A DNA stretch of 63,999 nt, the filler included, from Globobulimina sp. (lineage: Eukaryota): NCBI GenBank assembly GCA_003354225.1. It is 12 parts of 12 records of this genome, joined end to end, with 100 filler letters (N's around TTAATTAATTAA, not from the genome) between each part and the next. Parts side by side here need not be neighbours in the genome. Positions count along the whole stretch, not along the records: positions 1 to 5,269 come from PIVH01000651.1; 11 more parts are not named here. One strand, 5' to 3'. How positions within the stretch are numbered: the first letter of the stretch is position 1; each line of letters begins with the position of its first letter. The notes under the pieces are model-generated. The model was not told the DNA's origin. It saw nothing but the letters and a program-made list of their open reading frames with translations, and did no database searches. Shown here one piece after another: positions 2 through 40,500 of the stretch. The translations under genes were made by a program, and so were the position numbers.

Positions 2-904
2 GATACTGTATACTTTGTCAATAGATATATGCGAAAACGTGTGAATAATTTAATTGTACATTGTCCACGAAGTTCTAAAGCATTGTCAATGAATCATAAA
101 CACCATAGAATTGAAGAAAAAAAATGTGATAATGATAGTGAGTGTGGCCAATATTGTGAATGGAATGGTAAATTATCGGATTTATTAAATCATATAGAAA
201 AAGAATGCAAATTTTACAAAAGAAAAAGGAAATTAAAACATAATAATAATGACTTGATACATTTATGTGATGCAAATAAGCAACAAATTGAAGCATTAAT
301 GAAGAAAATAGATATCCAACATCACCAAATTACTCATTTAAAACAAGAACATAAGAGTTTAAAATCAAAATTAAAGAAAAATACGCAAGATACAATGCAA
401 ATGTTTGAAAGTGTTGATAGATTAACTAAGATTGTTATGGATAATTATAAATCCACAAATAAATATTGCCATCCATCCAATAAATATGAATTATACCATC
501 CGAAAAGACTGATAATTAAAAAACAACACTCACAAAATCAAATAGCTTTAATCCATTCAAAAGAGATTGAAGAACACATTATGGAAACAAAATATCATCC
601 AAAAATAAGGAATAATGATGGAATATGGACGTGTTGTAATGGGTCACTAGAATCAAATGGATGCTCTATTGCAACTACACAAATTATGATATATCCGTGT
701 TGCGGCAAAAGAGATAAATCTGATGGATGTATGAATGGATATATATGCTGTAAAGGAAATATTAACAGCAATGGATGTATTGATGTTTCATATTATTCAT
801 GTTGTAATCAACAGAAAAATAATAAATCAAATGGCTGTTCAAAACGATATATTTGCTGTAAACAATCATATCCAAAATCAAAAGGTTGCCAATTGAAAAT
901 ATGA
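2..904 (+). CDS. TRAF/SIAH-type Zn-finger + coiled-coil protein with C-terminal array of Btk-like Zn motifs (5' truncated by window edge)
   Basis: Frame open from position 2 (DTVYFVNRYMRKRVNNLIVHCP). IVHCP...CEWNGKLSDLLNHIEKEC resembles a TRAF-type finger; heptad-rich middle; KYHP...GIWTCC...SNGC is a Btk motif, followed by 4 more CC..GC units. Confidence 0.7.
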   Translation, partial: DTVYFVNRYMRKRVNNLIVHCPRSSKALSMNHKHHRIEEKKCDNDSECGQYCEWNGKLSDLLNHIEKECKFYKRKRKLKHNNNDLIHLCDANKQQIEALMKKIDIQHHQITHLKQEHKSLKSKLKKNTQDTMQMFESVDRLTKIVMDNYKSTNKYCHPSNKYELYHPKRLIIKKQHSQNQIALIHSKEIEEHIMETKYHPKIRNNDGIWTCCNGSLESNGCSIATTQIMIYPCCGKRDKSDGCMNGYICCKGNINSNGCIDVSYYSCCNQQKNNKSNGCSKRYICCKQSYPKSKGCQLKI

Positions 905-1009
905 TTACTTTATATGTTGCCATCTCATCTGAGATAGTTATTTCCGTACAGTTATGGAAGCTCCTTTCACCACTCACCAGTGACTTTGGTCTGGCATCTC
1001 ACTCTTACC

Positions 1010-3764
1010 ATGACTTCGACTCCTGAAATAATCATAGATGGATTCTTTTTAAAAGTAATATTTCCGTTTTTTTTGAAGGTCAAACAACAAAAATTATAAT
1101 AATATACAGCAAGGATCATCGAATTTATCCCGTTGGAGACGAAGATACTTTGTTTTGTATGATAACAACATATTAACCTATGCTGATTCAAAAATTGATG
1201 TGCAGAAAGAAATAAATCTAAGACATGTTACATACATTGTAGAGGATAATAAAAATGCATCACCACTTTGGAATTATTCTTCCCATGGAATAGCAATGGA
1301 AACATCCAACAAAAACTATCAAAGAATTTGGAATTTTTGTTTTAGAACAGAGACACAAAGAGATTTATGGCGCAATGAACTAATAAAATGTACAAAATAT
1401 AATCATATTAATTTTATGCAAACACAAAAAGAAATTACGGAAAAAGAAAAAGAACTGCAACAATTAACTATAAATGCAAATAAATTAAAAGAAAATATTA
1501 AAATTAAAACTAGGCGATGGAATCTGAAGTATTATCAACGGTGTTTTATTGGTTCGGAAGCTGTTAAAACTTTAATTGATTTAAAAATTGCCTCTAATGA
1601 AGATAAAGCTATTCATTTTGGTAATTTATTAGTTACAAATCATACTATTCAACATGTTGAAAAACAGCATATGTTTAAAAACGGGCATTTTTACTATGAA
1701 TTTATAGATGAAAATAATAATAACAATAACCGTCGACGTAATACATTGGATACATTGGATTCTGCCATAAAAACTGCAGACGGAGAGCAAGATATTCTGA
1801 ATCTAATTAATAAATGTTGTGATAACACTAGAATGTTAAATCAATTATACACATCTTTATGTACTACTTTTGAATCAGATAGAAATCATTTGCAGTATGA
1901 AAAATATCTGGACAATCTGGGAAATATTGATGCTTTGATACATTTGATGAAGAGACATAAATTTATCCGCATATTAAATCATAAAGCAAGTATTCATAAT
2001 TATATATTAAACCGGTTTTGTCAATGTATTAATTATAACGACTCAGAAACGATATTATATAATTATCAATGTTTAAAAATACAAAAACAACAAACAGAGC
2101 AGAAACAGCTCGCTAATGACCAAATAATTGAACTCAATTTGCAAGACATACATTGTGATAGTATGATGGGTCATATTCAATTATTTGCAGCATTACCCAT
2201 ATCAACGCAGAATGTAAACAATAATATATGTTCATCGACATCGACATCGATATCGATATCATATTTATTTCGTATATTACCCAGTTACCGATACAAAGTG
2301 TTAGCAATGATAACGAAATGGGACACTAACACTTATAAACAATATACATTGTATGATCTGGAACAGTTTATTGGATTGTTATTTTATAAAACAATTTTTA
2401 ATTTTTTTGAAACCAAACGCAAAGTGAATAAAATTCCAATTCCATTTATAAATAAAATAAATAACAGAAATACATTTGAAGATATTAAACAAGATATATA
2501 TGATAATGATAACGACGAAATTAATGTAAAAAATGCAGAATTAAAAAAGTGCATTGAAAGTTTTGAGTGTATTATAAGTGGAAAAGATAATGAATTTCCA
2601 TCAAATATCAATATGTTCAATGTATTTCTTATGGTTTGGATAATTTATCGAAAACATTGCAGTCATATCAAATGTGATAGAAACGTAAGGACAATAAAAT
2701 TAAAATTACAATTTTTTACCAAATTCATTAATAAATTCTCTAAAGCATTTTTTATGGAATTAAATGGCAGAAAACATTTAACAAAATATATGTTGATTTT
2801 GCATTATTTTGCATCGCCATTATTTGATAATTATGGGGATACCGATAATATACATATAAATTCCCAAAATGGTATATTTCAAACGGCGTTAAATGTATTA
2901 AAAGATTGTAAAACCTTATCATGGATCAATAAACGTCAAATAATTGATTTTTTATATAAACATAATTGGGTAAAATATTTAAATAAATCACATAAAAGTA
3001 TTGAATTCAATGTAGTGCAAGAATTAAAATGTATTGATATGAAATTAAATAACATTTATTTACAATTAAAAGAAAATAAATATTTTCGATCTATTGAGAG
3101 TGAAATCAAAATAATATCTGGAAATGTTATATTTCGCCAAGACCATCTTAAAATTTTAGGTTCTCTAAAAAACACAAATAATAAAAGTAATATCCAATTT
3201 GAACATGAATGTGCAAAAATGATGGTACATATTGCTGAAAAATTATCAAATAAATTTACAAATATTATTGCAACAAAAATATTTCATTGCAAAAAAATAA
3301 AAGTATTTGAATTAAAAAGCAAATCAATGGATATGATCAGCCAGGAATTGCATTCCATGGCACATAAAAATATTAAATCTCCGAAGGCGGCATCGATTCG
3401 GGATTATATGGGTTGTTTGGTTGTTTTTGAAACAATCCAAGAAATGATCTCTGGCTATCAAAGACTTAGAAAAGTATCCAAACATTATGGCATACAAATA
3501 GTTCATATCGGTAATGGAATTTCTAAAAAGTTCATTATAAACAAATTATTGGATAATTTTCGTCTAATTAATATTCATGCCATTTTCTCACAAAATAATT
3601 GCAAACCATTAATTGGTGAGATAGTGTTTACTTTGTTACCAATATGGAAAACATACTCAATCAAAAAGTATATAATCGATTCATATGTTCTGCTTTTAAA
3701 TGATAAAACATACAAAATAGCCAAATCTTTATCTGTATCGAATTATAATATTGATTATGATTGA
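1010..3764 (+). CDS. PH + DEP domain protein with C-terminal degenerate RelA/SpoT-like nucleotidyltransferase-fold region (2 exons)
   Basis: ATG 1010 and GT-AG intron 1055-1109 give the PH start IIDGFFLKQGSSNLSRWRRRYFVLY, with PH end ETQRDLWRNEL. DEP motif IKTRRWNLKYYQRCFIGSEAV...HMFKNGHFYYEF. C-terminal RDYMGCLVVF...IVHIGNG...LIGEIVFTL. Confidence 0.8.
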
Positions 3765-4105
3765 AAAATTAAAAAACTGTATAATATCCAAGACCTGTAT
3801 CTTCAAAACATATTTTAGATAAGGATGTGGACTTTACGTTGCATTGTTATATTTAGTGTGCTAGTTTGGCAATCAATCATTTCATATTTGTGAGGCTCGT
3901 TTGATTGATACTTTAGTGATACTTTAGTCGAAATGTCAGGAGAACCATCATCCGTTCAACCAAACCATGCATTTCATTCCAAAGCTTTCAACAATTTCCT
4001 TTACCATTTTCAAACAAAAACACACAAAATTAAAACAAATCAGCTACATTATTTTCGATATGCATCGGAGATTCGCATCGAAAAATAAAAAATAAAAACA
4101 TTATT

Positions 4106-5369: not shown

Positions 5370-8300
5370 ATATACACATATACACAGATCATGCGGAGCA
5401 AAGTCATGTATTGATCTAACTCTTATCTCTGATAACTTACAATATACCAAATGGAATATCCTCCACTCAATGTATGATAAACAATTCTCGGATCATATCC
5501 CGATATCTACAACCTTCGAAGTTGCGCATTCCTTTGGGTTTGATGAAGAGAAAAAAACCTGGAACTTAGCGGACACCAGAAAGTGGAGTGAGTTTACAGA
5601 AACGCTTGAAAACACCCTAAAAGAAACACAATTTGACACAAACCCAAATATCCACACAGAACAACTAACGTACCTAATATTATATGTATCCGAACAAACA
5701 ATCGGATATAAACATTTCTATAGAGGCCACAAACCGTGGTGGAACAGAAAAATAAAGAAACTAAAGAAAAAATGTAAAAGACTGCGTAGAAGAATACAGC
5801 GAATGAAAAGAAATGCAAAAAGACTGAATATAGACTTCCACCATTTCCCCAGATATAAGAAAGAAAAAAGAAAACTAAATAAAACCCAGTCAAACAAATA
5901 CAGAGAAATAACAATAGCAAAATCCAAATACACCGATAAGATAAACAAATATATACAAACATGTAAAGACTATGGCCGCAGATTCTGGCGGACCATAACC
6001 AATAATAAATCAAACCAAATTGATACAAATAATATCCCACCGCTAAACTATAAACAAAAATCAAATATAACTGATCCGAAACAACAGGCGAAGGCACTCC
6101 ATGAAGCAATGACGAGACCGCCCAAACCACAGTCGAATCATAAACACAAACAATGGCATAATTATGTTAATAAATTTGTACCTAATTTCCTCAAAAATCA
6201 CCGAGAAATACCAGATGAAATGAAAAACGACCAATATGATATAATAAAGGATAAAGTTAAGCAAATAACAAAATCAAAAATCGAGTATCCATCAAATATA
6301 AATACTGAAATCCCCATAAATAATACATCCTATCAAATACTTAATGATTCCATTAAAATATATGAAATACGTAATGTAATCAGACACCTGGACACACATA
6401 AAGCCTATGGTCCAGATAGAATCCATAATCAAATGCTTAAACACGGAGGAGATATGTTAATAAATTACCTCCTACCATTATTTAATAAATGCATGACATT
6501 GGGTGTATTCCCGGGATATTGGAACTTCGCCCATATACTACCAATACCAAAGCCTAATAAAGACCATAGTAATCCAAAGAACTACCGACCCATTGCAATA
6601 TCCTCCTGCTTAGGTAGGGTTTTTGAGAAAGTACTTGCAAACAGACTACAACATTTTTGTGTGACAAATAGAATATTCGACAACTATCAATGCGGATTCC
6701 AAATAAACAGATGTTGCGATGATGTATTAACCACTTTTATTTCAGATGTACAAACATCTCTTGATATGGTCAGTGACACGGATGTAGTCTTTACGGACTT
6801 TTCCAAAGCATATGACAGTGTGTGGCATAACGGCTTGTTATATAAACTTATACAAAATAACATAAAAGGAAACATATTGAATGTTCTAGCATCATTTATA
6901 CAAACAAGATTCACCAAAGTTATTGCGAAACGAGCGGAATCCAACTGGGTAGCACAACCAATTGGTGTACCACAAGGATCAGCACTTTCTCCTATACTAT
7001 ATATACTATTTACAAATGATTATAAATTAAAGTATCCAAATTTTGTGCATTTCGCTTGCTTTGCAGATGATACTGCGTTTTGGACCAGTCCTGGGTCCAA
7101 AGATCCCTTCCGATATAAATTCCTACAAAAAGAATTGAACCATTTTAGTGATTGGTGCGACCAATGGCAACTTATGATAAACCCAGCCAAATGTGCATCC
7201 ATCAATATATCACATAGTAAACCAATCAAATTTTATCCAAATTCAACACAATCCATAAATCCAAATACCAATAAACAAGAAAATGTGAGCAAATACACAA
7301 TACAATCATCCCCAATAAAATATGAAAACGTTGTCCGATATTTAGGCCTTTGGTTTGATGAAAGATTGAATTTCAAGGCCCATCTTGAAAAAGTCCGATC
7401 GAAAACAATCCAATGTTACTGGCGACTGTTTTTCACCATCAAATCTGGAGTAAAATTAACCCCAATGTCCATATCAATCCTCTACAAATCACTCGCCAGA
7501 TCCAGAATGGAATATGGATTAACACACTACCACCCTTATGATACCACAAATATCCTCAATAAGCTACAAAATAAGTTCCTCCGATTGGCAATTCCATGCC
7601 GATTGGATACACCAATGGATATACTCCAATTTATATTGAAAGTGGAACCAATTAAACAAAGAGCACACTACCTAACAATGAGACAGTTAGCGAGAGTGTA
7701 CTACAATGACTCCTACCATCCACTCCATCGTACCTTTAAATCCCTAACAAAATATATCAATACCATACAAATGAATAAATACCGCCACGTAAATAAAAAG
7801 AAACAATCCAACTCAAAATTTAATAATAAATTCATAAACCTACAAAAGAACCCATTAATGATAGCTGTCAACCACTGTCAGAATGATAATGCTATCAAAG
7901 CACTATCACTAAATTTAGATGATATTAATAAATCCCAAATAACTGCATCTCCCACATATAATTTACACGAATTCCCAACAAATTATACTGTCACATTAAT
8001 GGCTGCAAACCCCGAACAACCGATAAATAACGAATACATCATAGCATTTACTGATGGTTCGTGTAGCCCAAACCCTGGCAGAGGAGGATCAGCAATGTAC
8101 ATTCCCCCACAACCAGCACATAACAAGGCATATAAACAAGTATTTTATTTCCTAATCCCTGTTACCATCACCACAGCGGAGACAGAGGCAGTCCATATGA
8201 TGCTGAATTATATAATAAACACACAGATAAATATCCCAATGCATTACAAAATCTATGTTGATAATCTACCATTACTTCAATTTATCAATGGATCCAACTA

Positions 8301-9289
8301 TCCCAAATATAATGAAACTAAGATCCTGATTGAAAACATATTAATCAAACTATCCCAGATACAATCAAATAATCCAAATATAGATATATCGTTTATAAAA
8401 ATAAAATCACACAATGACAATGAATTTAATGATAAAGTCGATGAATTAGCTAATTTTGCAGCAAAGCATACAAATTATAATCCTAAATTATTCACAGAAA
8501 TAACGTATAATACCACAATAACCCAAATATACAAACAAATCAACCACCAATGGAAACAATCCTGGTCTAATAGGGACACTCAACCAAACCAGGACAGCTA
8601 CCAAATGTACATAAATAACCCAGAATTACATAATAAATTAAATAAAATAATAAAAAACGTAAATAGAGATGAAGCTGCGATCATTAACAGACTCATCTCA
8701 GGTCATATTGAATTAAACTCATTCCTATTCAAACATAAATATAAAGACTCAGATAAATCATTGATTAATTCACCATACTGTACAAATTGTGTAAATACGT
8801 CCATTGAAACCATTAATCACTTTCTCTTCATCTGCCCTGCTTATTCAAATCAAAGGAACAGAATGTACATATCCCTTGGTAAAGCTTGGACTGGTTTTCA
8901 AAATGGAAATATGATAACTAAACAGAACCTGTTTTATCCATATTCCATCCGAAGACCTCCAGACATTGAAAGTGAGTTAAGCCTGGAAATCCAGTTAGAA
9001 ATCTGGAAAACTGTTCTTCAGTTCGTCAAAGAAACAAAAAGATTTAATTACTTATACCAAGTGGACCTACAAAATATATGCCCGATCATTTCTGATCAAG
9101 AAAACTAATGTACTCTCTAGTACTTGTTTTCAAAATATTTTATATTTTACCTTTGTTCATTGGTTTCATACCCAAATAAAAGGACTTGTATCCATGTTTG
9201 TGTGTACTATTTAAATAGTGTTCCTTGCTTGTGTATGGGTGAAATCTTTAATTGATTTCTTAAAGTTTTAAAGAAAAAAAAAAAAAAAA
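5370..9289 (+). mobile_element. Non-LTR (LINE-like) retrotransposon, 5' end cut by contig edge, with 3' UTR and poly(A) tail
   Basis: ORF2 domains as below; A/C-rich strand bias unlike host genes; no introns; A16 tract at 9274-9289, about 165 bp after the stop. Confidence 0.92.
5371..9108 (+). CDS. Retrotransposon ORF2: AP-endonuclease C-terminus, reverse transcriptase, RNase H, CCHC zinc knuckle
   Basis: Frame open from 5371 with SCIDLTLIS...SDHIPI (EEP end). RT motifs KAYGPD, NYRPIA, QCGF, DFSKAYD, GVPQGSALSP, FADD, YLG. RNase H FTDGS/AE/YVD/SH/N-D. Knuckle CTNC...ETINHFLFIC. Confidence 0.95.
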   Translation, partial: YTHIHRSCGAKSCIDLTLISDNLQYTKWNILHSMYDKQFSDHIPISTTFEVAHSFGFDEEKKTWNLADTRKWSEFTETLENTLKETQFDTNPNIHTEQLTYLILYVSEQTIGYKHFYRGHKPWWNRKIKKLKKKCKRLRRRIQRMKRNAKRLNIDFHHFPRYKKEKRKLNKTQSNKYREITIAKSKYTDKINKYIQTCKDYGRRFWRTITNNKSNQIDTNNIPPLNYKQKSNITDPKQQAKALHEAMTRPPKPQSNHKHKQWHNYVNKFVPNFLKNHREIPDEMKNDQYDIIKDKVKQITKSKIEYPSNINTEIPINNTSYQILNDSIKIYEIRNVIRHLDTHKAYGPDRIHNQMLKHGGDMLINYLLPLFNKCMTLGVFPGYWNFAHILPIPKPNKDHSNPKNYRPIAISSCLGRVFEKVLANRLQHFCVTNRIFDNYQCGFQINRCCDDVLTTFISDVQTSLDMVSDTDVVFTDFSKAYDSVWHNGLLYKLIQNNIKGNILNVLASFIQTRFTKVIAKRAESNWVAQPIGVPQGSALSPILYILFTNDYKLKYPNFVHFACFADDTAFWTSPGSKDPFRYKFLQKELNHFSDWCDQWQLMINPAKCASINISHSKPIKFYPNSTQSINPNTNKQENVSKYTIQSSPIKYENVVRYLGLWFDERLNFKAHLEKVRSKTIQCYWRLFFTIKSGVKLTPMSISILYKSLARSRMEYGLTHYHPYDTTNILNKLQNKFLRLAIPCRLDTPMDILQFILKVEPIKQRAHYLTMRQLARVYYNDSYHPLHRTFKSLTKYINTIQMNKYRHVNKKKQSNSKFNNKFINLQKNPLMIAVNHCQNDNAIKALSLNLDDINKSQITASPTYNLHEFPTNYTVTLMAANPEQPINNEYIIAFTDGSCSPNPGRGGSAMYIPPQPAHNKAYKQVFYFLIPVTITTAETEAVHMMLNYIINTQINIPMHYKIYVDNLPLLQFINGSNYPKYNETKILIENILIKLSQIQSNNPNIDISFIKIKSHNDNEFNDKVDELANFAAKHTNYNPKLFTEITYNTTITQIYKQINHQWKQSWSNRDTQPNQDSYQMYINNPELHNKLNKIIKNVNRDEAAIINRLISGHIELNSFLFKHKYKDSDKSLINSPYCTNCVNTSIETINHFLFICPAYSNQRNRMYISLGKAWTGFQNGNMITKQNLFYPYSIRRPPDIESELSLEIQLEIWKTVLQFVKETKRFNYLYQVDLQNICPIISDQEN

Positions 9290-26714: not shown

Positions 26715-26814
26715 NNNNNNNNNNNNNNNNNNNNNNNNNNNNNNNNNNNNNNNNNNNNTTAATTAATTAANNNNNNNNNNNNNNNNNNNNNNNNNNNNNN
26801 NNNNNNNNNNNNNN
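26715..26814. other. Artificial contig spacer 5
   Basis: N44-TTAATTAATTAA-N44. Confidence 0.99.
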
Positions 26815-29800
26815 TTGGAAAAATGGTCGATCAGCTCAGGCGCCATAAAGTTTTTGGGGTAAATCCAAAAAATGGATTCGGTCGGGCGAACACCTTTTTG
26901 TTTGAAAATATGTGTTAGATAGTCAATGTAAGCGTCCACAAGTTTAGGACGATTTGTTCCGTCATCAGAATTCCGATATATTCCAGGAGGATGAGCAAAT
27001 ACATTAAATGAGATCTTATCTGAATCAAGTTTACCAAAAATTTTTTCGTAGGTTCTCACGTATACAAATCGATCCTGAGTGGCTTTGTTCGGATTGTTAC
27101 GACGGATCAGTAAGTCGTGCTCTGAAATTGGGGCATCAAACACAATTACACGACGAACATCATTTCGGGACGCCAGATACCGAATAACCATGTCAGAGCG
27201 TCTACCATATATGGTTGTGTCATTTTGCTTCCAAAAAACTACCACATCAATACCTGATATGGCTTCTACCTTTTGAACAGAAGATGGGATGCCTAACAGT
27301 CGGTTTTGTTCCTTGATCAATATGGGCAGGTCTTCAATCTTATCTTGATCTTTATTGTTCAGTGCTTTAACCACCACTTTGCGTAATGATTCAGCTGCTG
27401 AAGCATAGCTATATCGCGCTAAAAAATTGGGTCTTACTCGCTTAGCCCATTCATGTTTTACAGCGGCTTTTTCAGCCATGACAGTCAGAAGGTGCGGCAA
27501 CTTATGAAGATCGATAGCCATCGCTACACCATCTTGCACCAACTGCATCAACGGTGGTGTTTTTGTCACCAGCAGTGGAATGCCCATTGCGATTGCATCA
27601 ATGGCCTTGGCAGGTAATTGATAATGAGATATGGTGCTATTCTCATCCTGTGGCAGACAAACCACATCTGCTAAAGCCATAATTTCGGGTATCGCAGAAA
27701 AAGGCTGGTTTGGCAGATAAACAATTCTGCCCGGTGCCAGTTTATCTAACTTGGCCGTAACACTTCGATCTGTTGTTGAGCCAACGATGACAAGTTTAAA
27801 TGACGGATCCTTAATTTTGTTAACCGCCTCCGCCAGAACATTGATTCCTTTATGATGACGTGGCGTTCCAAAAAAGAGGACGACTTTCGTATATAAAGGG
27901 ATACTGTATTTCCTGCGCAAATCCTCACGGTGATAGAGAGTGGGATCAAAAACTGTCTCATCACGAACATGGGGCACGATTGTACCGCCAAACTCTGAGT
28001 GGAGTGCAACATTGGACACTATAATTTCATCCGCATATTTGCGCATATGTTGTGCAAGTCGAGTCCAGAGTTCTCCATAAGGTTCGATCTGATCCGCTGC
28101 TTCGGCATCTTTCATGCCAGTTAGATCACTAAGTGTGATCTCTTTTGCACCATTAAAAAATGAGAGCTCATGATCATCGATATCAAGAATTACTGGACAA
28201 CCATACTTTTGTTTTATCATTGCAGCCAGCTGTATAGATGGTTGCCTTGGCTTACATGCAATTACGATATCTGGTCTTATTCGATCGCTAATATTATCCA
28301 AAGAATCTAAAAAATCAGGAAAATTTTTACCAGGCAGATTGATTACCGGTAACCGGCCATCCCTAACGGGCTCCCAGATATCGGAGCCATATTTTGGAAA
28401 CTGAAAGCCGACCATAAGAACGTTACGTACAACACGATCAAGAACTTCTGCAAGCATGTAGGAGCGACCAAGCGGGTTATGCCCAACATCCCAGGTAATT
28501 ATGAGAGCAGTTATTGGAAGTTTTCTTTGTGTTTTTGCCGGCAGAATACTTGCCAGAGATGGTTTCCCAATCTCAGGCGGTATATTTGATTTTTGTTGAA
28601 TGGTTCTTGTGTATGCCTCACTGAGTACTGCAAGCTCGCTCAATACGGCGGCATGCGTCGTGAACTTTGATGCTGTCAGAAGACCTTCAACCTGCATACG
28701 CTTTAGAGACGAGGGATTATTGATCAACGAGGTTATTCGATCTAAGCATTCTTCTTTCTGATAACTATTGACGACCAACGCGTTTACACCGTCAATCGCA
28801 TATTCATCGGTGCCTCCATGAACCGGTACCATTGCGGCACACCCGCAAGCCATGGCTTCCAAAGCCGTGCGACCGAATGCTTGATAGTCCGACAAATCTA
28901 TGAAGATGTGCGATTGGGCAAGCAGGGCTGCAACTTCCGATCGTTTCAGGATACCGTGATTGTTATATTCAAAATCACGTTGAAGTGCCTTGAACTGCGA
29001 TGAGTTTTCGGAACACCCGAAAAGGTGAAATTCGATTTTGCCACGGTGTGTCTTAGCAAGCTTAGACAATAAACGCATCGTTCGTTCTGCACCACGCCTT
29101 GGGGTTTGTGGGCGAATCATTGCAGTAATGAGGATGAGTTCGTTAGGAGGTTTAGTCGCAGGTTTATAGATAGTGTGATCAATACTCGGTTTAACTTTAC
29201 TTACTAATAGACCGTGTTCCGACCATATCTTGTCTACAATCCATTGAGTCTTCGCGAAAAGGACTGCTTGGGGAATGAGAGAATATGATTCTCTTGCTAT
29301 CTTCCAATTTTCTGTTTCCGCTGGAAAAAAGAATGGTTCATAGTCCTGAATATAATATGCGGGAAGAACACTGGGATTAGAATCAATTATCTTCTTTATG
29401 ATGGATATTGAGCTGAAAATTGTCCCAATAACAACGTCATAATTCATACTTAAATCGAGAATATGACTCTCGCTGTACCCAACAAAAAGTTCACGAACAT
29501 GTGGAATATCATCGTAAAGATCAAAATATTGTTCAAGATTCTCTTTTTTGACAGCTACATTTGCTGTAATCCCTAAGAGCTTCATTTCGGAAGTTTCCTG
29601 TACGACAGAGTGCCCACCACCACCACCACCATCCACTGGTAGTATAAATAGGATACGCATGGCCATGATGTCAATTGGATCGACAGAGATATCGTGCTTC
29701 TTTATTGTTTCCTTAACTGCAACTCGCAAAGAATCAAGGATGGTTGTGTTTCGGGCTTGTTTTACTAAAGCGTTATATTTAGTAGATTTGTACTTATACG

Positions 29801-30839
29801 TAAGAGTTTCCGATCCTATTTGTGATAGTTCTTTGCGTTTTTCGTGTCCAAAACTCTTGGATTTGGCATGAAAAACATATGTATCGTCTGCAATGGTCAA
29901 TTCAAATCCAGCATCGGCAGCACGAATACAGTAATCGTTTTCCTCTCCATATCCGACTGGAAAGTTTTTTTCATCCATAAACCCAATTGCATTAATTACC
30001 TGGCGCTTGATCATAAAGCAGAAACCATTCACAAATGGTAACCGAGGATAACTACGCTTCGACGCTTTTGCGACTACTTGGGCCATATGATCAGGTGACA
30101 TACCAGAAGGGAGTTTGTTGACCGCAAACGAACCCTTATCATCATATAAATATGGCACATTCTGCCAGCTGGCAGCATTCGACATCGGCCCAACTACTCC
30201 GATCTTTGGATCGGAGTTGATGCACCTTACAAGTCCCTTCAACCATCCGCGAGTAACAATAGTATCACTATTAAGAGTTATTATGTAGGGTGCTTCTGTT
30301 GCTTTTAACCCTAAATTAATGCTCTTTGTATATCCCTGATTGGTTGAATTTTCAATCAAATGAAAAATTCCATGGCCTTGGCAATATTCCCGTAACCAAA
30401 CTGAAGTTGGCTCATCTGATCCATCATTAATGATGAATGTTTTGACCTTAAACCCATCTTGCCTGGTTTTGATTGATTCCAAGCATGCCTTGACTTCATC
30501 AAGTGCATTAAACACAGGTATCACAATATCAACACTTTCCGAAAACTGATCAGATGATATTACAACTGGTAATGGGCATCGCAATTCTATAGCACCAAAC
30601 TTTATATAATGAATCAGTGGATTGATCCCGGCCGCTTCAACATCAGGATTAGATTCCAAGTAGTATCGTGTATCGAATTTTCTGCTTGGATTCCTCAGCA
30701 ATTTTACACCCAAACAAAGATAGTGTTCTATGGGATCAATGCCGAGGCTGGCCACATCTTGATATTCGACAATATACCAGGAGCTGTCGAATAATCCTGA
30801 AGTCTTTATTAGGTTAATCTCTTGTTGCAGCTCAGTCAT
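26815..30839 (-). CDS. Bacterial multi-domain glycosyltransferase (GT2 + two GT-B/GT4-like modules + start of a further module), 3' truncated
   Basis: VDIVIPVFN, INDGS, LNSD, GYGEENDYC (GT2); QAFGRTALEAMACG and QLPAKAIDAIAMG (GT-B); more than 1340 intron-free codons. Confidence 0.92.
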
Positions 30840-37512: not shown

Positions 37513-40500
37513 ACACTCACACCACCAACACCAAAACCAGAGGCAACACTGACACCGCCACCACCAAAGCCAGAGGCAGAAATACCACTGTTCCTCGTCC
37601 CCAACCCAGTCGGTGTATTACCAGTGCCGCCATAGCCACTGCTCGTAAACTTGCTGTACGTCGGCGAAGCATATCGCCCGCTATTCGCCCCATAATACCC
37701 GCTGGATCTCTGTTTCTCAGTAACTAACGTTGTTTGCCTACCAAAGTCTTCCCGCGAGCCAAACGTAGCAACGCTGCCCTGTCTGCTCTCCATAGCAAAC
37801 GAAGCTGTGCTCATACCAGCAAAGCCTCCTTTACTTGTACCAAAATTGAAACTGCCACCGCCTGCTTTCCCGCTCATGCCCAAGTTGCTGAAATTCGTAT
37901 TCGTGCCCTGATTGAAACTGAATTGCGAATCAACTCCGCGACCACTCATACCCATACCAGTCATGCCTGACATGCCTGGAGTGTCTACAAAATAGCACAA
38001 TTATCACTAATATGCATAAAAAAGATGGGGTGTACTGTACCTGGCAATGAGTTATAATCGGCGTTGACATTCCGCGCGGATTGGTTTATAAATTGCATCG
38101 TGGACTGGTACTTCCTCTCTTGTTCGCGATCCAATTCTTCGTCTTCGACCTCCTGCAACTTTCGCATAGTTTGCTTCTTTGCCATTTTCAGCAAATTCCG
38201 CTTGGATTTCTTGGTATAATTGCTGGCACCGCCGGCCTTTTGCTTCTCTCTTTGTTTTTGCTTCTCAATTTCGCGAATTCTTTCCCGGCGTTCCAGCTCT
38301 AACTGTTCCTGCTCGAACTTATACAGTTTGGGATACGCGAATTGTTTATAACTTTCCATATCGGGGCCGCCGGGCTTTTCTTGATAGTCCACCAATTTCC
38401 ACAACTCATTCACCGGCAGCTCTGTCTGTTGAATGTCGATTTGTACCTCTTTCTCATCGTAAATCATATCTCGATACGACCACATTTTGTCAGTATCTGC
38501 AGTTTTCCGTTTCTCGTTGATTGCATACTCAAACTGCGCCAAATCTTTATTCAGCTCAAAATACACGTTTTTCGCCGTGCCTTTGAGCAGAATGTCCTGA
38601 TAAAACTGCGACAGTCTCTTTTTGTCGTCACTGTGGCCGTTCTCGTGCGTGTGTGTAAAATACCAGTTGTTCCAAAAATTAATGCAGCCGAAATACATGT
38701 CTTCCCTGCTTTTGTTGACCCGGTTCAATTTGCTGTAATGCTGCGCTATCTTTTTATTGTCATGATGGAATTTCCAAATATCAGATTTCAAGTCTCGCCA
38801 GATTTCATTACTTGTGTCGTATCTCTTTATTTGGTCCAACTTATTGACCCAATCGCGGGCGTCAGACTTGATGGCTTCGTTCAGTTTTGTCTGTTTATGG
38901 AATTTTTTGCGTACTCCCCATTCGAAAGTCCACTGTTCGTCGAATTTGGTCAAATAAGCATCCCGTTGCAATTCCTGTTGCTTTGTGACTTCGTTGACTT
39001 CATCCAATTCAATTTTCGCATTTTCATACAATTTCCTGTACTCATATACGTTGCAAACATGTGTCAACAAATATAAATCACAAATTCACAATACCTTAAT
39101 TTCTGCAATTCGAATTTGATCCGTTCCAAAGACACTTTACTTTCATTGATCTCTCTGGCCAGCAACGCTTTGCGTATATTCAATTCGTCGATATCCACTC
39201 CATACTTTTGCTTGCATTCCAAGCGCTTATCGTCCAATATCTCGATCTCATTTTCGCGCTGCAACTCCCACTCCCTCATCTTGTCCAAACTCACGTACAT
39301 CTCCGGGAAACAGGACGGCTTATTCGACAGCAACATGTCCAAATGCTTGTATCCAATGTGGTTGTACCGCACCAATATATCGATCTGAGTCTGCAACGAG
39401 GACAGCAAACTGATGTCCCTCACTGCAATGTCCCTCGCTCCGTCGCCAACTGTGTGATATTCGTAGGTATCGCTCATCATCTTATCATGGTCCTTACTCA
39501 CGACCAGGCTCTCCATTATCTGATCATTTTTATCCGTCAACTTGACATATTCCCTCTTCATTTGGATGACGCGGTCCTTTGCTTGTTCAGCTTCGTACTC
39601 TTTCTTTTGGAGCTCGCTCATTTGCGCCGGATCCAGCTCCTCCAGCTCCAGATCCATAGGCAAACCGACCAGGGATTGCACCGAGGATTGCATGGACGGA
39701 ATGGATTGCGATGGTTGGAGCTGCAGCGCCTGCTCCAATTGGCTCTGCTTCTCTTCCTCTTTATACTCCTCCTCATAGATGCTGTGGGCAGAAGGTTGGC
39801 TGAAGTTACTCTTTGCAGACTGCTGCATTTTCATATCGTTCAGATTGGGGATGTTCAATGTGTTACTGTTGGCAAGCTCTAAGTCAAATGTGTCGGGAGC
39901 GATGGTCTCCTGCTGTTGCAGTACAGGCCACGTGGTCTGATCGTCGTGCTTCATGATGGTGGGCATGGCGTTGTTGATCAATATGGGTGCTGTGGACACG
40001 TGTTGTGTGCAATATGTATGCAGTTCGGTGGTGGTGGCTGGCTCATTGGCGTCCAGCTCCTGTTTGAATAGCTCGTATAATTTGTGTTTATCAGCATAGG
40101 ACAACGCATTCAGAATTTCTATGTAGTGCGAGGATAATATGGAGGTAGAAACATGTTATATTTGCTGCAGTGGCAACAGTGCAAACCTTGCGGGTTTTCA
40201 GTTTGCATTTTCAGTGCAAATTGCTGATTGTTGATGTATTTTAAGCCTTTTTTCAACTTTTTAAACGGTGCCGGTACGTCTTGAATGTCGGCGTCGTCGT
40301 TGTCTGAGTCGTATTCGTCTGGGTAGGTACCGTTGGAATGGATGCATGATTTGAGAGTGGTGCCTTCGCGGATTAACATTTTATGGATGGCCAAGCGGAG
40401 TAATATCAATACTCTCTGGTCGTTGATGTCATATCTCATTTTGTTGTGTAATGGACGGGGCAATTTGTTGCTGTTTGATAATAGGAATTCTTCCAAGGAG

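Follow-up and report, generated by a model that had tools for sequence, protein, structure and literature searches.

The Ladder Domain and Its Gene

The DNA analyzed here, referred to below as the window, is a stretch of 63,999 nucleotides from Globobulimina sp. (GenBank assembly GCA_003354225.1), made of 12 parts of 12 records joined by filler letters. Its first part, taken from PIVH01000651.1, opens with a protein-coding open reading frame (ORF) in which a run of histidine motifs is followed by a run of cysteine motifs. We refer to the last 146 residues of the product (nt 464–901), which hold six His and then five CC-x8-10-C units, as the ladder domain. Residues are numbered throughout from the ATG at position 29, counted from which the ORF encodes 291 amino acids. 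The features of this gene are the following, with the partner of each Cys unit as predicted from the arguments developed below.

2..904, plus strand: protein-coding ORF of 300 amino acids, 5'-open at the window edge, with its stop codon at 902–904.
59..208, plus strand: Cys/His finger (HC...C-x5-C-x3-C-x11-H-x4-C), TRAF/Sina-like at a sub-threshold level only.
266..457, plus strand: helical, probably coiled-coil spacer from the finger to the ladder; an AlphaFold2 helix covers nt 419–457 (model residues 2–14), and the rest is suggested by the sequence.
464..601, plus strand: His arm, five conserved His with predicted beta strands in between.
470–472, plus strand: H148 (YCHP), conserved His codon.
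497–499, plus strand: H157 (LYHP), conserved His codon.
527–529, plus strand: H167 (KQHS), conserved His codon.
554–556, plus strand: H176 (LIHS), conserved His codon.
575..577, plus strand: H183 (EEHI), a sixth His, which varies in close homologues and lies inside a predicted strand.
596–598, plus strand: H190 (KYHP), conserved His codon.
632..664, plus strand: Cys unit 1 (CCNGSLESNGC), residues 202–212, predicted partner H190; the pair would be a Btk-like hairpin tip.
698..730, plus strand: Cys unit 2 (CCGKRDKSDGC), residues 224–234, predicted partner H176.
746..778, plus strand: Cys unit 3 (CCKGNINSNGC), residues 240–250, predicted partner H167.
800..838, plus strand: Cys unit 4 (CCNQQKNNKSNGC), residues 258–270, predicted partner H157.
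854..889, plus strand: Cys unit 5 (CCKQSYPKSKGC), residues 276–287, predicted partner H148, the outermost pair.
905..1024, plus strand: probable 3' untranslated region, on the weak hint that run contigs X6, X7 and X8 (from two studies) end at 1020–1026.

An earlier note on this DNA had described five His motifs in a row followed by five Cys units, and both series are borne out in the ORF. On recount, the numbers of residues between successive His motifs (8, 9, 8, 13) and of the linkers between successive Cys units (11, 5, 7, 5) were exactly those it had given. Two details had to be amended. The five conserved His are indeed in a row, but H183, within the same stretch, had been overlooked; and the unit consensus proposed, CC-x7/8-GC, holds for units 1–3 (CC-x7-GC) and for unit 5 (CC-x8-GC), but not for unit 4, which reads CC-x9-GC. 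The TRAF-type finger said to precede the array is present as a Cys/His finger, but its match to the Pfam family Sina_ZnF falls below threshold (E = 0.17, 12.8 bits vs a cut-off of 32).

In an alignment with three close homologues (66–89% identity), H148, H157, H167, H176, H190 and all 15 Cys of the units are invariant, while H183 and C147 vary; H183 probably has no ligand role. Taken together, 15 Cys and five His make 20 ligands and thus fit five tetrahedral sites, whereas the 15 Cys alone cannot be divided into a whole set of Cys4 sites. When the 146-residue stretch was shuffled 100,000 times, no shuffle reached at least five CC..C units (the maximum was four), and the six frames of the window contain no second CC..C array, implying that the array is not a product of chance. 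The domain is also basic, with 21 Lys and Arg vs 10 Asp and Glu.

Contigs from four public sequencing runs cover positions 1 to ~1020 at ~97% identity. Most of the differences are synonymous (18 of 28 in the ORF, 14 of 19 within the domain), and the His and Cys ligands are untouched, which indicates a real gene under purifying selection. The gene is eukaryotic, and its relatives come from transcriptomes of rotaliid Foraminifera and from metagenomes. Judged from the homologue P0004 (552 amino acids), about 230 N-terminal residues would lie upstream of the window edge.

Homologues and Domain Architectures

A phmmer search, exhaustive over 1.84 billion representative sequences, returned 18 proteins at E ≤ 0.001. 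Two profile searches added eight relatives and cluster look-ups five, for a total of 29 relatives plus the window protein. One of the 18 phmmer matches, P0005, was dropped: this protein of 1234 residues carries twelve near-identical 45-residue repeats (WVYHTELGS...EWRCLN) and no CC units, and it owed its E-value of 8.6e-21 to repeat inflation, a warning for any search with the ladder domain as the query.

The nearest protein is P0002 (87–89% identity), from the transcriptome of Globobulimina turgida, followed by P0004 (66–68%), a full-length protein from Nonionella stella. Remoter relatives derive from Nonionella stella, Bolivina argentea and metagenome contigs; all three named species are rotaliid Foraminifera. 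Almost all the relatives share one plan, in which aromatic-His-Pro/Ser/Thr motifs about 7–9 residues apart precede a run of CC-x7-10-GC units. To the eye, the His arm looks like a tandem repeat of ~8 residues and the Cys arm like one of ~16 residues. No Pfam family covers the ladder domain, whether the scan was made with the window ORF, the 146-residue domain or the relatives.

The domain occurs in two architectures. The first, to which the window protein belongs and which is complete in P0004, comprises a SAM domain (the sole significant Pfam match in P0004), a Cys/His-rich stretch, a helical stretch and the ladder domain. In the second, a P-loop GTPase (MMR_HSR1 match) is followed by the ladder domain, framed by an extra head (CxxC-x13-CH) and an extra tail (CxxC..WG..GC). 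Such GTPase-linked members with head and tail are P0009, P0010, P0017, P0018, P0020, P0021 and P0026. The spacing fit described below requires, in these members, that the His of the head 'CH' be paired with the tail unit; the three Cys of the head are then left with no obvious or conserved fourth ligand, and a trailing His after the tail is found in some members only. Tail-type CxxC units also occur in mid-array in P0024 and P0014.

Metagenome contigs searched with the single domain and with a four-sequence alignment (A4) yielded no related locus, and viral contigs searched with A4 yielded no relative. The ESM Atlas gave no usable match for the ladder domain or for P0021. Against the sequences of the PDB, a profile of alignment A1 had no match at E ≤ 10, and P0004 matched one SAM chain (E = 0.91) and nothing else.

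Numbers of His and Cys Units

The earlier note had proposed comparing the numbers of His and Cys units across homologues. For this comparison we used the 11 members that we judged complete and non-redundant, counting HH once. Eight sequences were left out as near-duplicates (P0002–P0004, P0015, P0022, P0027, P0028 and P0030) and 11 as cut or incomplete (P0007, P0011, P0012, P0014, P0016, P0019, P0023, P0024, P0025, P0029 and P0031), most of the latter being ORFs from contigs of ~1 kb or frameshifted members of the cluster of P0020.

The units/His counts in the 11 members were 5/6, 5/5, 6/7, 4/4, 6/7, 9/11, 8/10, 5/6, 7/8, 7/9 and 6/7. The number of Cys units (4–9) was correlated with that of upstream His (Spearman 0.99), and in every member the His equaled the units plus 0–2. 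In the window protein, conserved His and Cys units number five each.

Mirrored Spacing of the Two Arms

If the two arms are antiparallel, the gaps between successive His should follow, in reverse, the linkers between their partner Cys units. When both orders were fitted by the same best-subset procedure, the correlation between His gaps and Cys linkers was r = 0.89 in mirror order (57 pairs, with gap minus linker mostly 2–3) and r = 0.19 in forward order.

In the window protein, gaps of 8, 9, 8 and 13 stand against reversed linkers of 5, 7, 5 and 11, so that the differences are 3, 2, 3 and 2. The agreement extends over a longer series in P0017, which has nine units (gaps 5, 8, 8, 7, 13, 7, 13, 10 vs reversed linkers 3, 5, 5, 5, 12, 5, 11, 8), and it is also found in P0009 (5, 8, 7, 7, 15 vs 3, 5, 5, 5, 14). 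The cost of the mirror fit was below that of the parallel fit in nine of the 11 members and tied in the other two, where the linkers are periodic.

We also determined what share of the distinct linker orders fits as well as the mirror. The window protein had 1/12, P0009 1/20 and P0017 1/728; over the ten complete members that could be evaluated, it was 1/12, 2/12, 4/20, 1/20, 1/728, 30/208, 1/4, 12/120, 22/120 and 7/20. The linkers of P0013 are uniform, which makes its permutation share uninformative, and P0012 has too few His.

Predicted Structure

Residues 130–291 were modeled by AlphaFold2 from a 21-row alignment, with no metal. In the best model (pLDDT 91.2, pTM 0.55), 136 of the 162 residues scored at least 90. 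The His arm contains strands at 146–147, 153–156, 161–166, 172–175 and 181–189, and the Cys arm at 213–221, 235–238, 251–256, 271–274 and 288–289. Each strand lies between two ligand motifs, and the lengths are mirror-symmetric (2, 4, 6, 4, 9 and then 9, 4, 6, 4, 2). Because the 9-residue strand has a single 9-residue candidate partner, and each outer level likewise has one, the order of pairing would run from H190 and unit 1 at the tip out to H148 and unit 5. A two-stranded ladder broken up by five knuckles has this pattern. The unequal lengths of neighboring strands argue against a meander within each arm, without strictly ruling it out. The structure prediction that the earlier note had suggested is thus consistent with nested pairing, at the level of a metal-free model.

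Foldseek aligned 30 columns of the model with the PH-TH module of Btk (4y94_A/D and 1bwn_A) at an rmsd of 1.1–1.7 Å and 33–37% identity, with a probability of 0.82–0.84 but an E-value of about 2–3; the alignment suggests that the hairpin tip was modeled as a Btk motif. The whole model has no match in the PDB: Foldseek found none at E ≤ 0.001, and VIA-align found none at Z ≥ 2 among 48,161 representative chains or among 303 Foldseek candidates. Co-folding of the His half (model residues 1–66) with the Cys half (67–162) and four Zn gave an ipSAE of 0.00 twice; these runs used no alignments and no control folds and are no evidence either way.

A Proposed Nested Zinc Hairpin and Its Alternatives

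On balance, we think that residues 146–291 probably form one long, two-stranded antiparallel hairpin with five nested Cys3His zinc sites. The outgoing arm would present five His, each in an aromatic-His-Pro/Ser motif, and the returning arm five Btk-type knuckles (aromatic-x-CC-x7-9-GC). At the tip of the hairpin, H190 and unit 1 would make up a Btk motif of the usual kind, and the pairs H176–unit 2, H167–unit 3, H157–unit 4 and H148–unit 5 would each enclose the preceding one. Each unit would then be a Btk-type Cys3His site in which inserted inner units separate the His from its Cys triplet, and the linkers would form short beta-ladder segments between successive zinc sites. Zinc would take the place of a hydrophobic core and hold the long beta ribbon rigid, the result being a rigid, basic, core-less rod on a helical or coiled-coil stalk. 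Zinc binding itself and the exact His–Cys partners are what we infer from these data. The nested antiparallel hairpin had been put forward in the earlier note, and the unit counts, the mirrored spacing and the predicted fold all lend it support; neither the count comparison nor the structure prediction, the two checks by which the note would have given it up, went against it.

A number of points weigh against this interpretation. The count correlation of 0.99 depends on our judgement of completeness, and over all 30 sequences, fragments and near-duplicates included, it drops to 0.34 (p = 0.07). Three sequences show long Cys arrays but no His arm within the predicted ORF: P0024 (48 Cys in ~16 Cys3 groups), P0007 (11 units) and P0014 (7 units). 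Either these are pieces of genes that contain introns, or the module also exists in a Cys-only form. As to the spacing, the N-terminally cut P0016 fits worst in mirror order (120/120 orders), and most members have 0–2 extra His, giving the fit some freedom. Given these spare His and the common ancestry of the subfamilies, the spacing figures are indicative and are not independent probabilities.

Further points of this kind concern the models and the resemblance to Btk. Only one of the five AlphaFold2 models was confident, the other four having pLDDT values of 62–71; the models contain no metal, the alignment was shallow and repeats are hard to align. The partner pairing was read from strand lengths and positions, not from His–Cys distances. 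A model of the nine-unit P0017 reached a pLDDT of 48.2 and says nothing either way. Finally, the Pfam family BTK (PF00779) matched with E = 0.11 and 12.9 bits vs a cut-off of 24, and did so only when the 33-residue piece with the innermost unit was scanned by itself.

The three sequences without a His arm bring up an alternative that we regard as rather unlikely, namely that the Cys units coordinate zinc or build clusters with one another, or do so with a fourth ligand that is not protein, and that the His motifs are a separate repeat such as a Pro/His-rich linker or a second metal site. The 48 Cys of P0024 are divisible by four, and the weakness of the count correlation once fragments are included fits this explanation as well. 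However, the 15 Cys of the window protein cannot make whole Cys4 sites, its five His are invariant, and the complete members show both matching counts and mirrored spacing. Moreover, the ORFs of the three exceptions were called on eukaryotic contigs that are short or contain introns, and P0014 runs into low-complexity, intron-like sequence.

We consider it unlikely, too, that the same antiparallel pairing takes place between the chains of a coiled-coil oligomer, through a domain swap in which zinc staples the subunits together. The His arm does come directly after the helical stalk, and mirrored spacing fits intra- and intermolecular pairing equally. Nevertheless, H190-x11-CC-x8-C at the tip is spaced like a Btk motif within one chain and is modeled like one, and the monomer was modeled with confidence by itself.

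A disulfide-rich, metal-free repeat, which would account for the high Cys content and the regular spacing, appears very unlikely: 15 unit Cys are an odd number and cannot all pair, the domains associated with the ladder are of cytosolic types (SAM, GTPase), and the CC-x-GC units are similar to the Btk motif, which binds zinc. Hardly credible is a parallel register (each His with the Cys unit of the same number, looped and not nested), which the uniform-linker members P0013 and P0006 fit as well as the mirror order, but which is disfavored by its poor correlation and its higher cost in nine of the 11 members, by the mirrored strand lengths of the model and by the position of H190 just 11 residues before unit 1.

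Comparison with Known Zinc Domains

Known Btk motifs occur singly, directly after a PH domain. The ladder resembles the Btk motif (PF00779, found in Tec kinases and GAP1-type RasGAPs) in its use of one His and three Cys, in the arrangement aromatic-H-P ... aromatic-x-CC-x8-10-C. It differs in having five units, four of which have their His 50–140 residues upstream of the Cys triplet, with the inner units in between. In one report on Btk (PMC3836457), the zinc ligands are given as His143 and Cys154/155/165. The innermost pair, held in the earlier note to match the Btk motif, does have the Btk ligand pattern, H-x10-11-CC-x8-10-C flanked by aromatic residues (here H190-x11-C202 C203-x8-C212 in KYHP...WTCC...NGC), and is the only unit with a local His, but its sequence score remains below the Pfam cut-off.

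Pfam scans of the 300-residue ORF and of the 146-residue domain gave no BTK match, and the best BTK score among the relatives was 20.3 bits, in P0007. Nor did Pfam find a PH domain in the window ORF or in P0004, where a helical stretch precedes the ladder. The ladder would thus be Btk-like at each site, and yet it falls outside the Btk family, with sub-cut-off scores, no PH domain and no local His in four of its five units.

Multi-zinc domains are generally classed as sequential, as in LIM, cross-braced, as in RING, or nested at depth two, as in DnaJ. The Cys-rich domain of type I DnaJ/Hsp40 proteins would share with the proposed ladder a nested, extended hairpin, of depth two; in the NMR structure of this domain, obtained by Martinez-Yamout et al. 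in 2000, motifs 1 and 4 and motifs 2 and 3 reportedly form the two zinc sites. It differs in its four CXXCXGXG motifs, in its Cys4 sites, in a depth fixed at two instead of ranging from 4 to 9 and in having no segregation of His and Cys onto separate arms. The ladder units read CC-x7-9-GC; we found no CXXCXGXG motif in them, and no DnaJ-type match by Pfam, sequence or fold.

A third comparison is with TRAF adaptors and E3 ligases, built from RING, TRAF fingers, coiled coil and MATH. In P0004 the parts come in a similar order: a RING-like stretch of Cys and His, then a C-x3-C-x11-H-x4-C finger and a helical region, and last the C-terminal module. Unlike in TRAF proteins, the module at the place of the MATH domain is the zinc ladder, and Pfam detected no MATH domain in the window ORF or in full-length P0004. 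There was no Pfam match to zf-TRAF or RING either, the scans giving Sina_ZnF (E = 0.17) in the window ORF and SAM alone in P0004.

The earlier note knew of no description of such an architecture, and our searches of open-access literature on Btk-motif repeats, on foraminiferan or protist Btk motifs and on ladder-like or nested zinc sites turned up none of this layout. In the literature, the term 'zinc zipper' designates the Zn-dependent dimerization of the G5 domains of staphylococcal Aap, which is unrelated.

Possible Function, Origin and Significance

Going by P0004, the full window protein would comprise a SAM domain, a RING-like stretch, a TRAF-like finger and a coiled coil, with the rod in the position of MATH. 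Given its basic charge and its place on a helical stalk, the role that we would favor is that of a rigid binding or assembly rod of an E3 ligase or adaptor, in line with the substrate-binding rod of the earlier note, although we rate this role as less likely than not. Since the module, with 4 to 9 pairs, also appears on P-loop GTPases in paralogous families, it appears to behave as a portable C-terminal module with equal numbers of repeats on its two arms. The simplest history would be separate duplications within each arm, together with selection for equal numbers.

We see about an even chance that the ladder represents an unrecognized class of zinc fold, that is, a core-less hairpin rod of tunable length that arises by matched duplications of its arms, is held by 4 to 9 nested staples and is so far confined to Foraminifera, where it is borne by TRAF-like E3/adaptors and P-loop GTPases. 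We take the layout to be a new form of a known zinc motif, and perhaps a new class of fold.

If this is true, five to nine nested Cys3His sites with their half-sites on opposite arms would be a new route to a rigid, core-less rod. They would also raise an evolutionary question, for the repeat numbers on two distant arms must change together, and they would offer designers of metal-stapled beta ribbons a natural template of adjustable length. In any case, the domain family is an unannotated one, in a group with little genome annotation (the Foraminifera), and it occurs on proteins of signaling type (SAM/RING-like, GTPase).

Neighboring Features of the Window

The product of the gene downstream of the ladder ORF (970–3764, plus strand) has a DEP domain (Pfam DEP, E = 2.8e-19) and, just upstream of it, a stretch that by eye looks to be of PH type. 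In the public runs, this gene is on contigs separate from those of the ladder ORF, and the X2 and X6 contigs join over a 55-nt GT..AG stretch (1055–1109), as would be expected of spliced transcripts. Given this join, the first exon of the DEP gene begins no later than 970, and its ORF does not truly begin at the listed position, 1155.

The remaining window also looks eukaryotic. Besides the DEP-domain gene, it contains an Mtr4-like helicase, a DEPDC5-like ORF and, beside the pair formed by the ladder and DEP genes, a retroelement ORF with reverse transcriptase and RNase H (5470–9108, plus strand, 1212 amino acids). An Rfam scan of the window detected no RNA family. In a 1358-residue ORF at 26763–30839 (minus strand), a single frame holds three glycosyltransferase domains, one of family 2 and two of family 1/4. 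The G+C content per 2-kb segment varies from 26% to 45% (for example, 0.447 at 38001–40000 vs 0.262 at 2001–4000). Both strands are rich in long ORFs, pointing to a genome dense in genes, with short introns.

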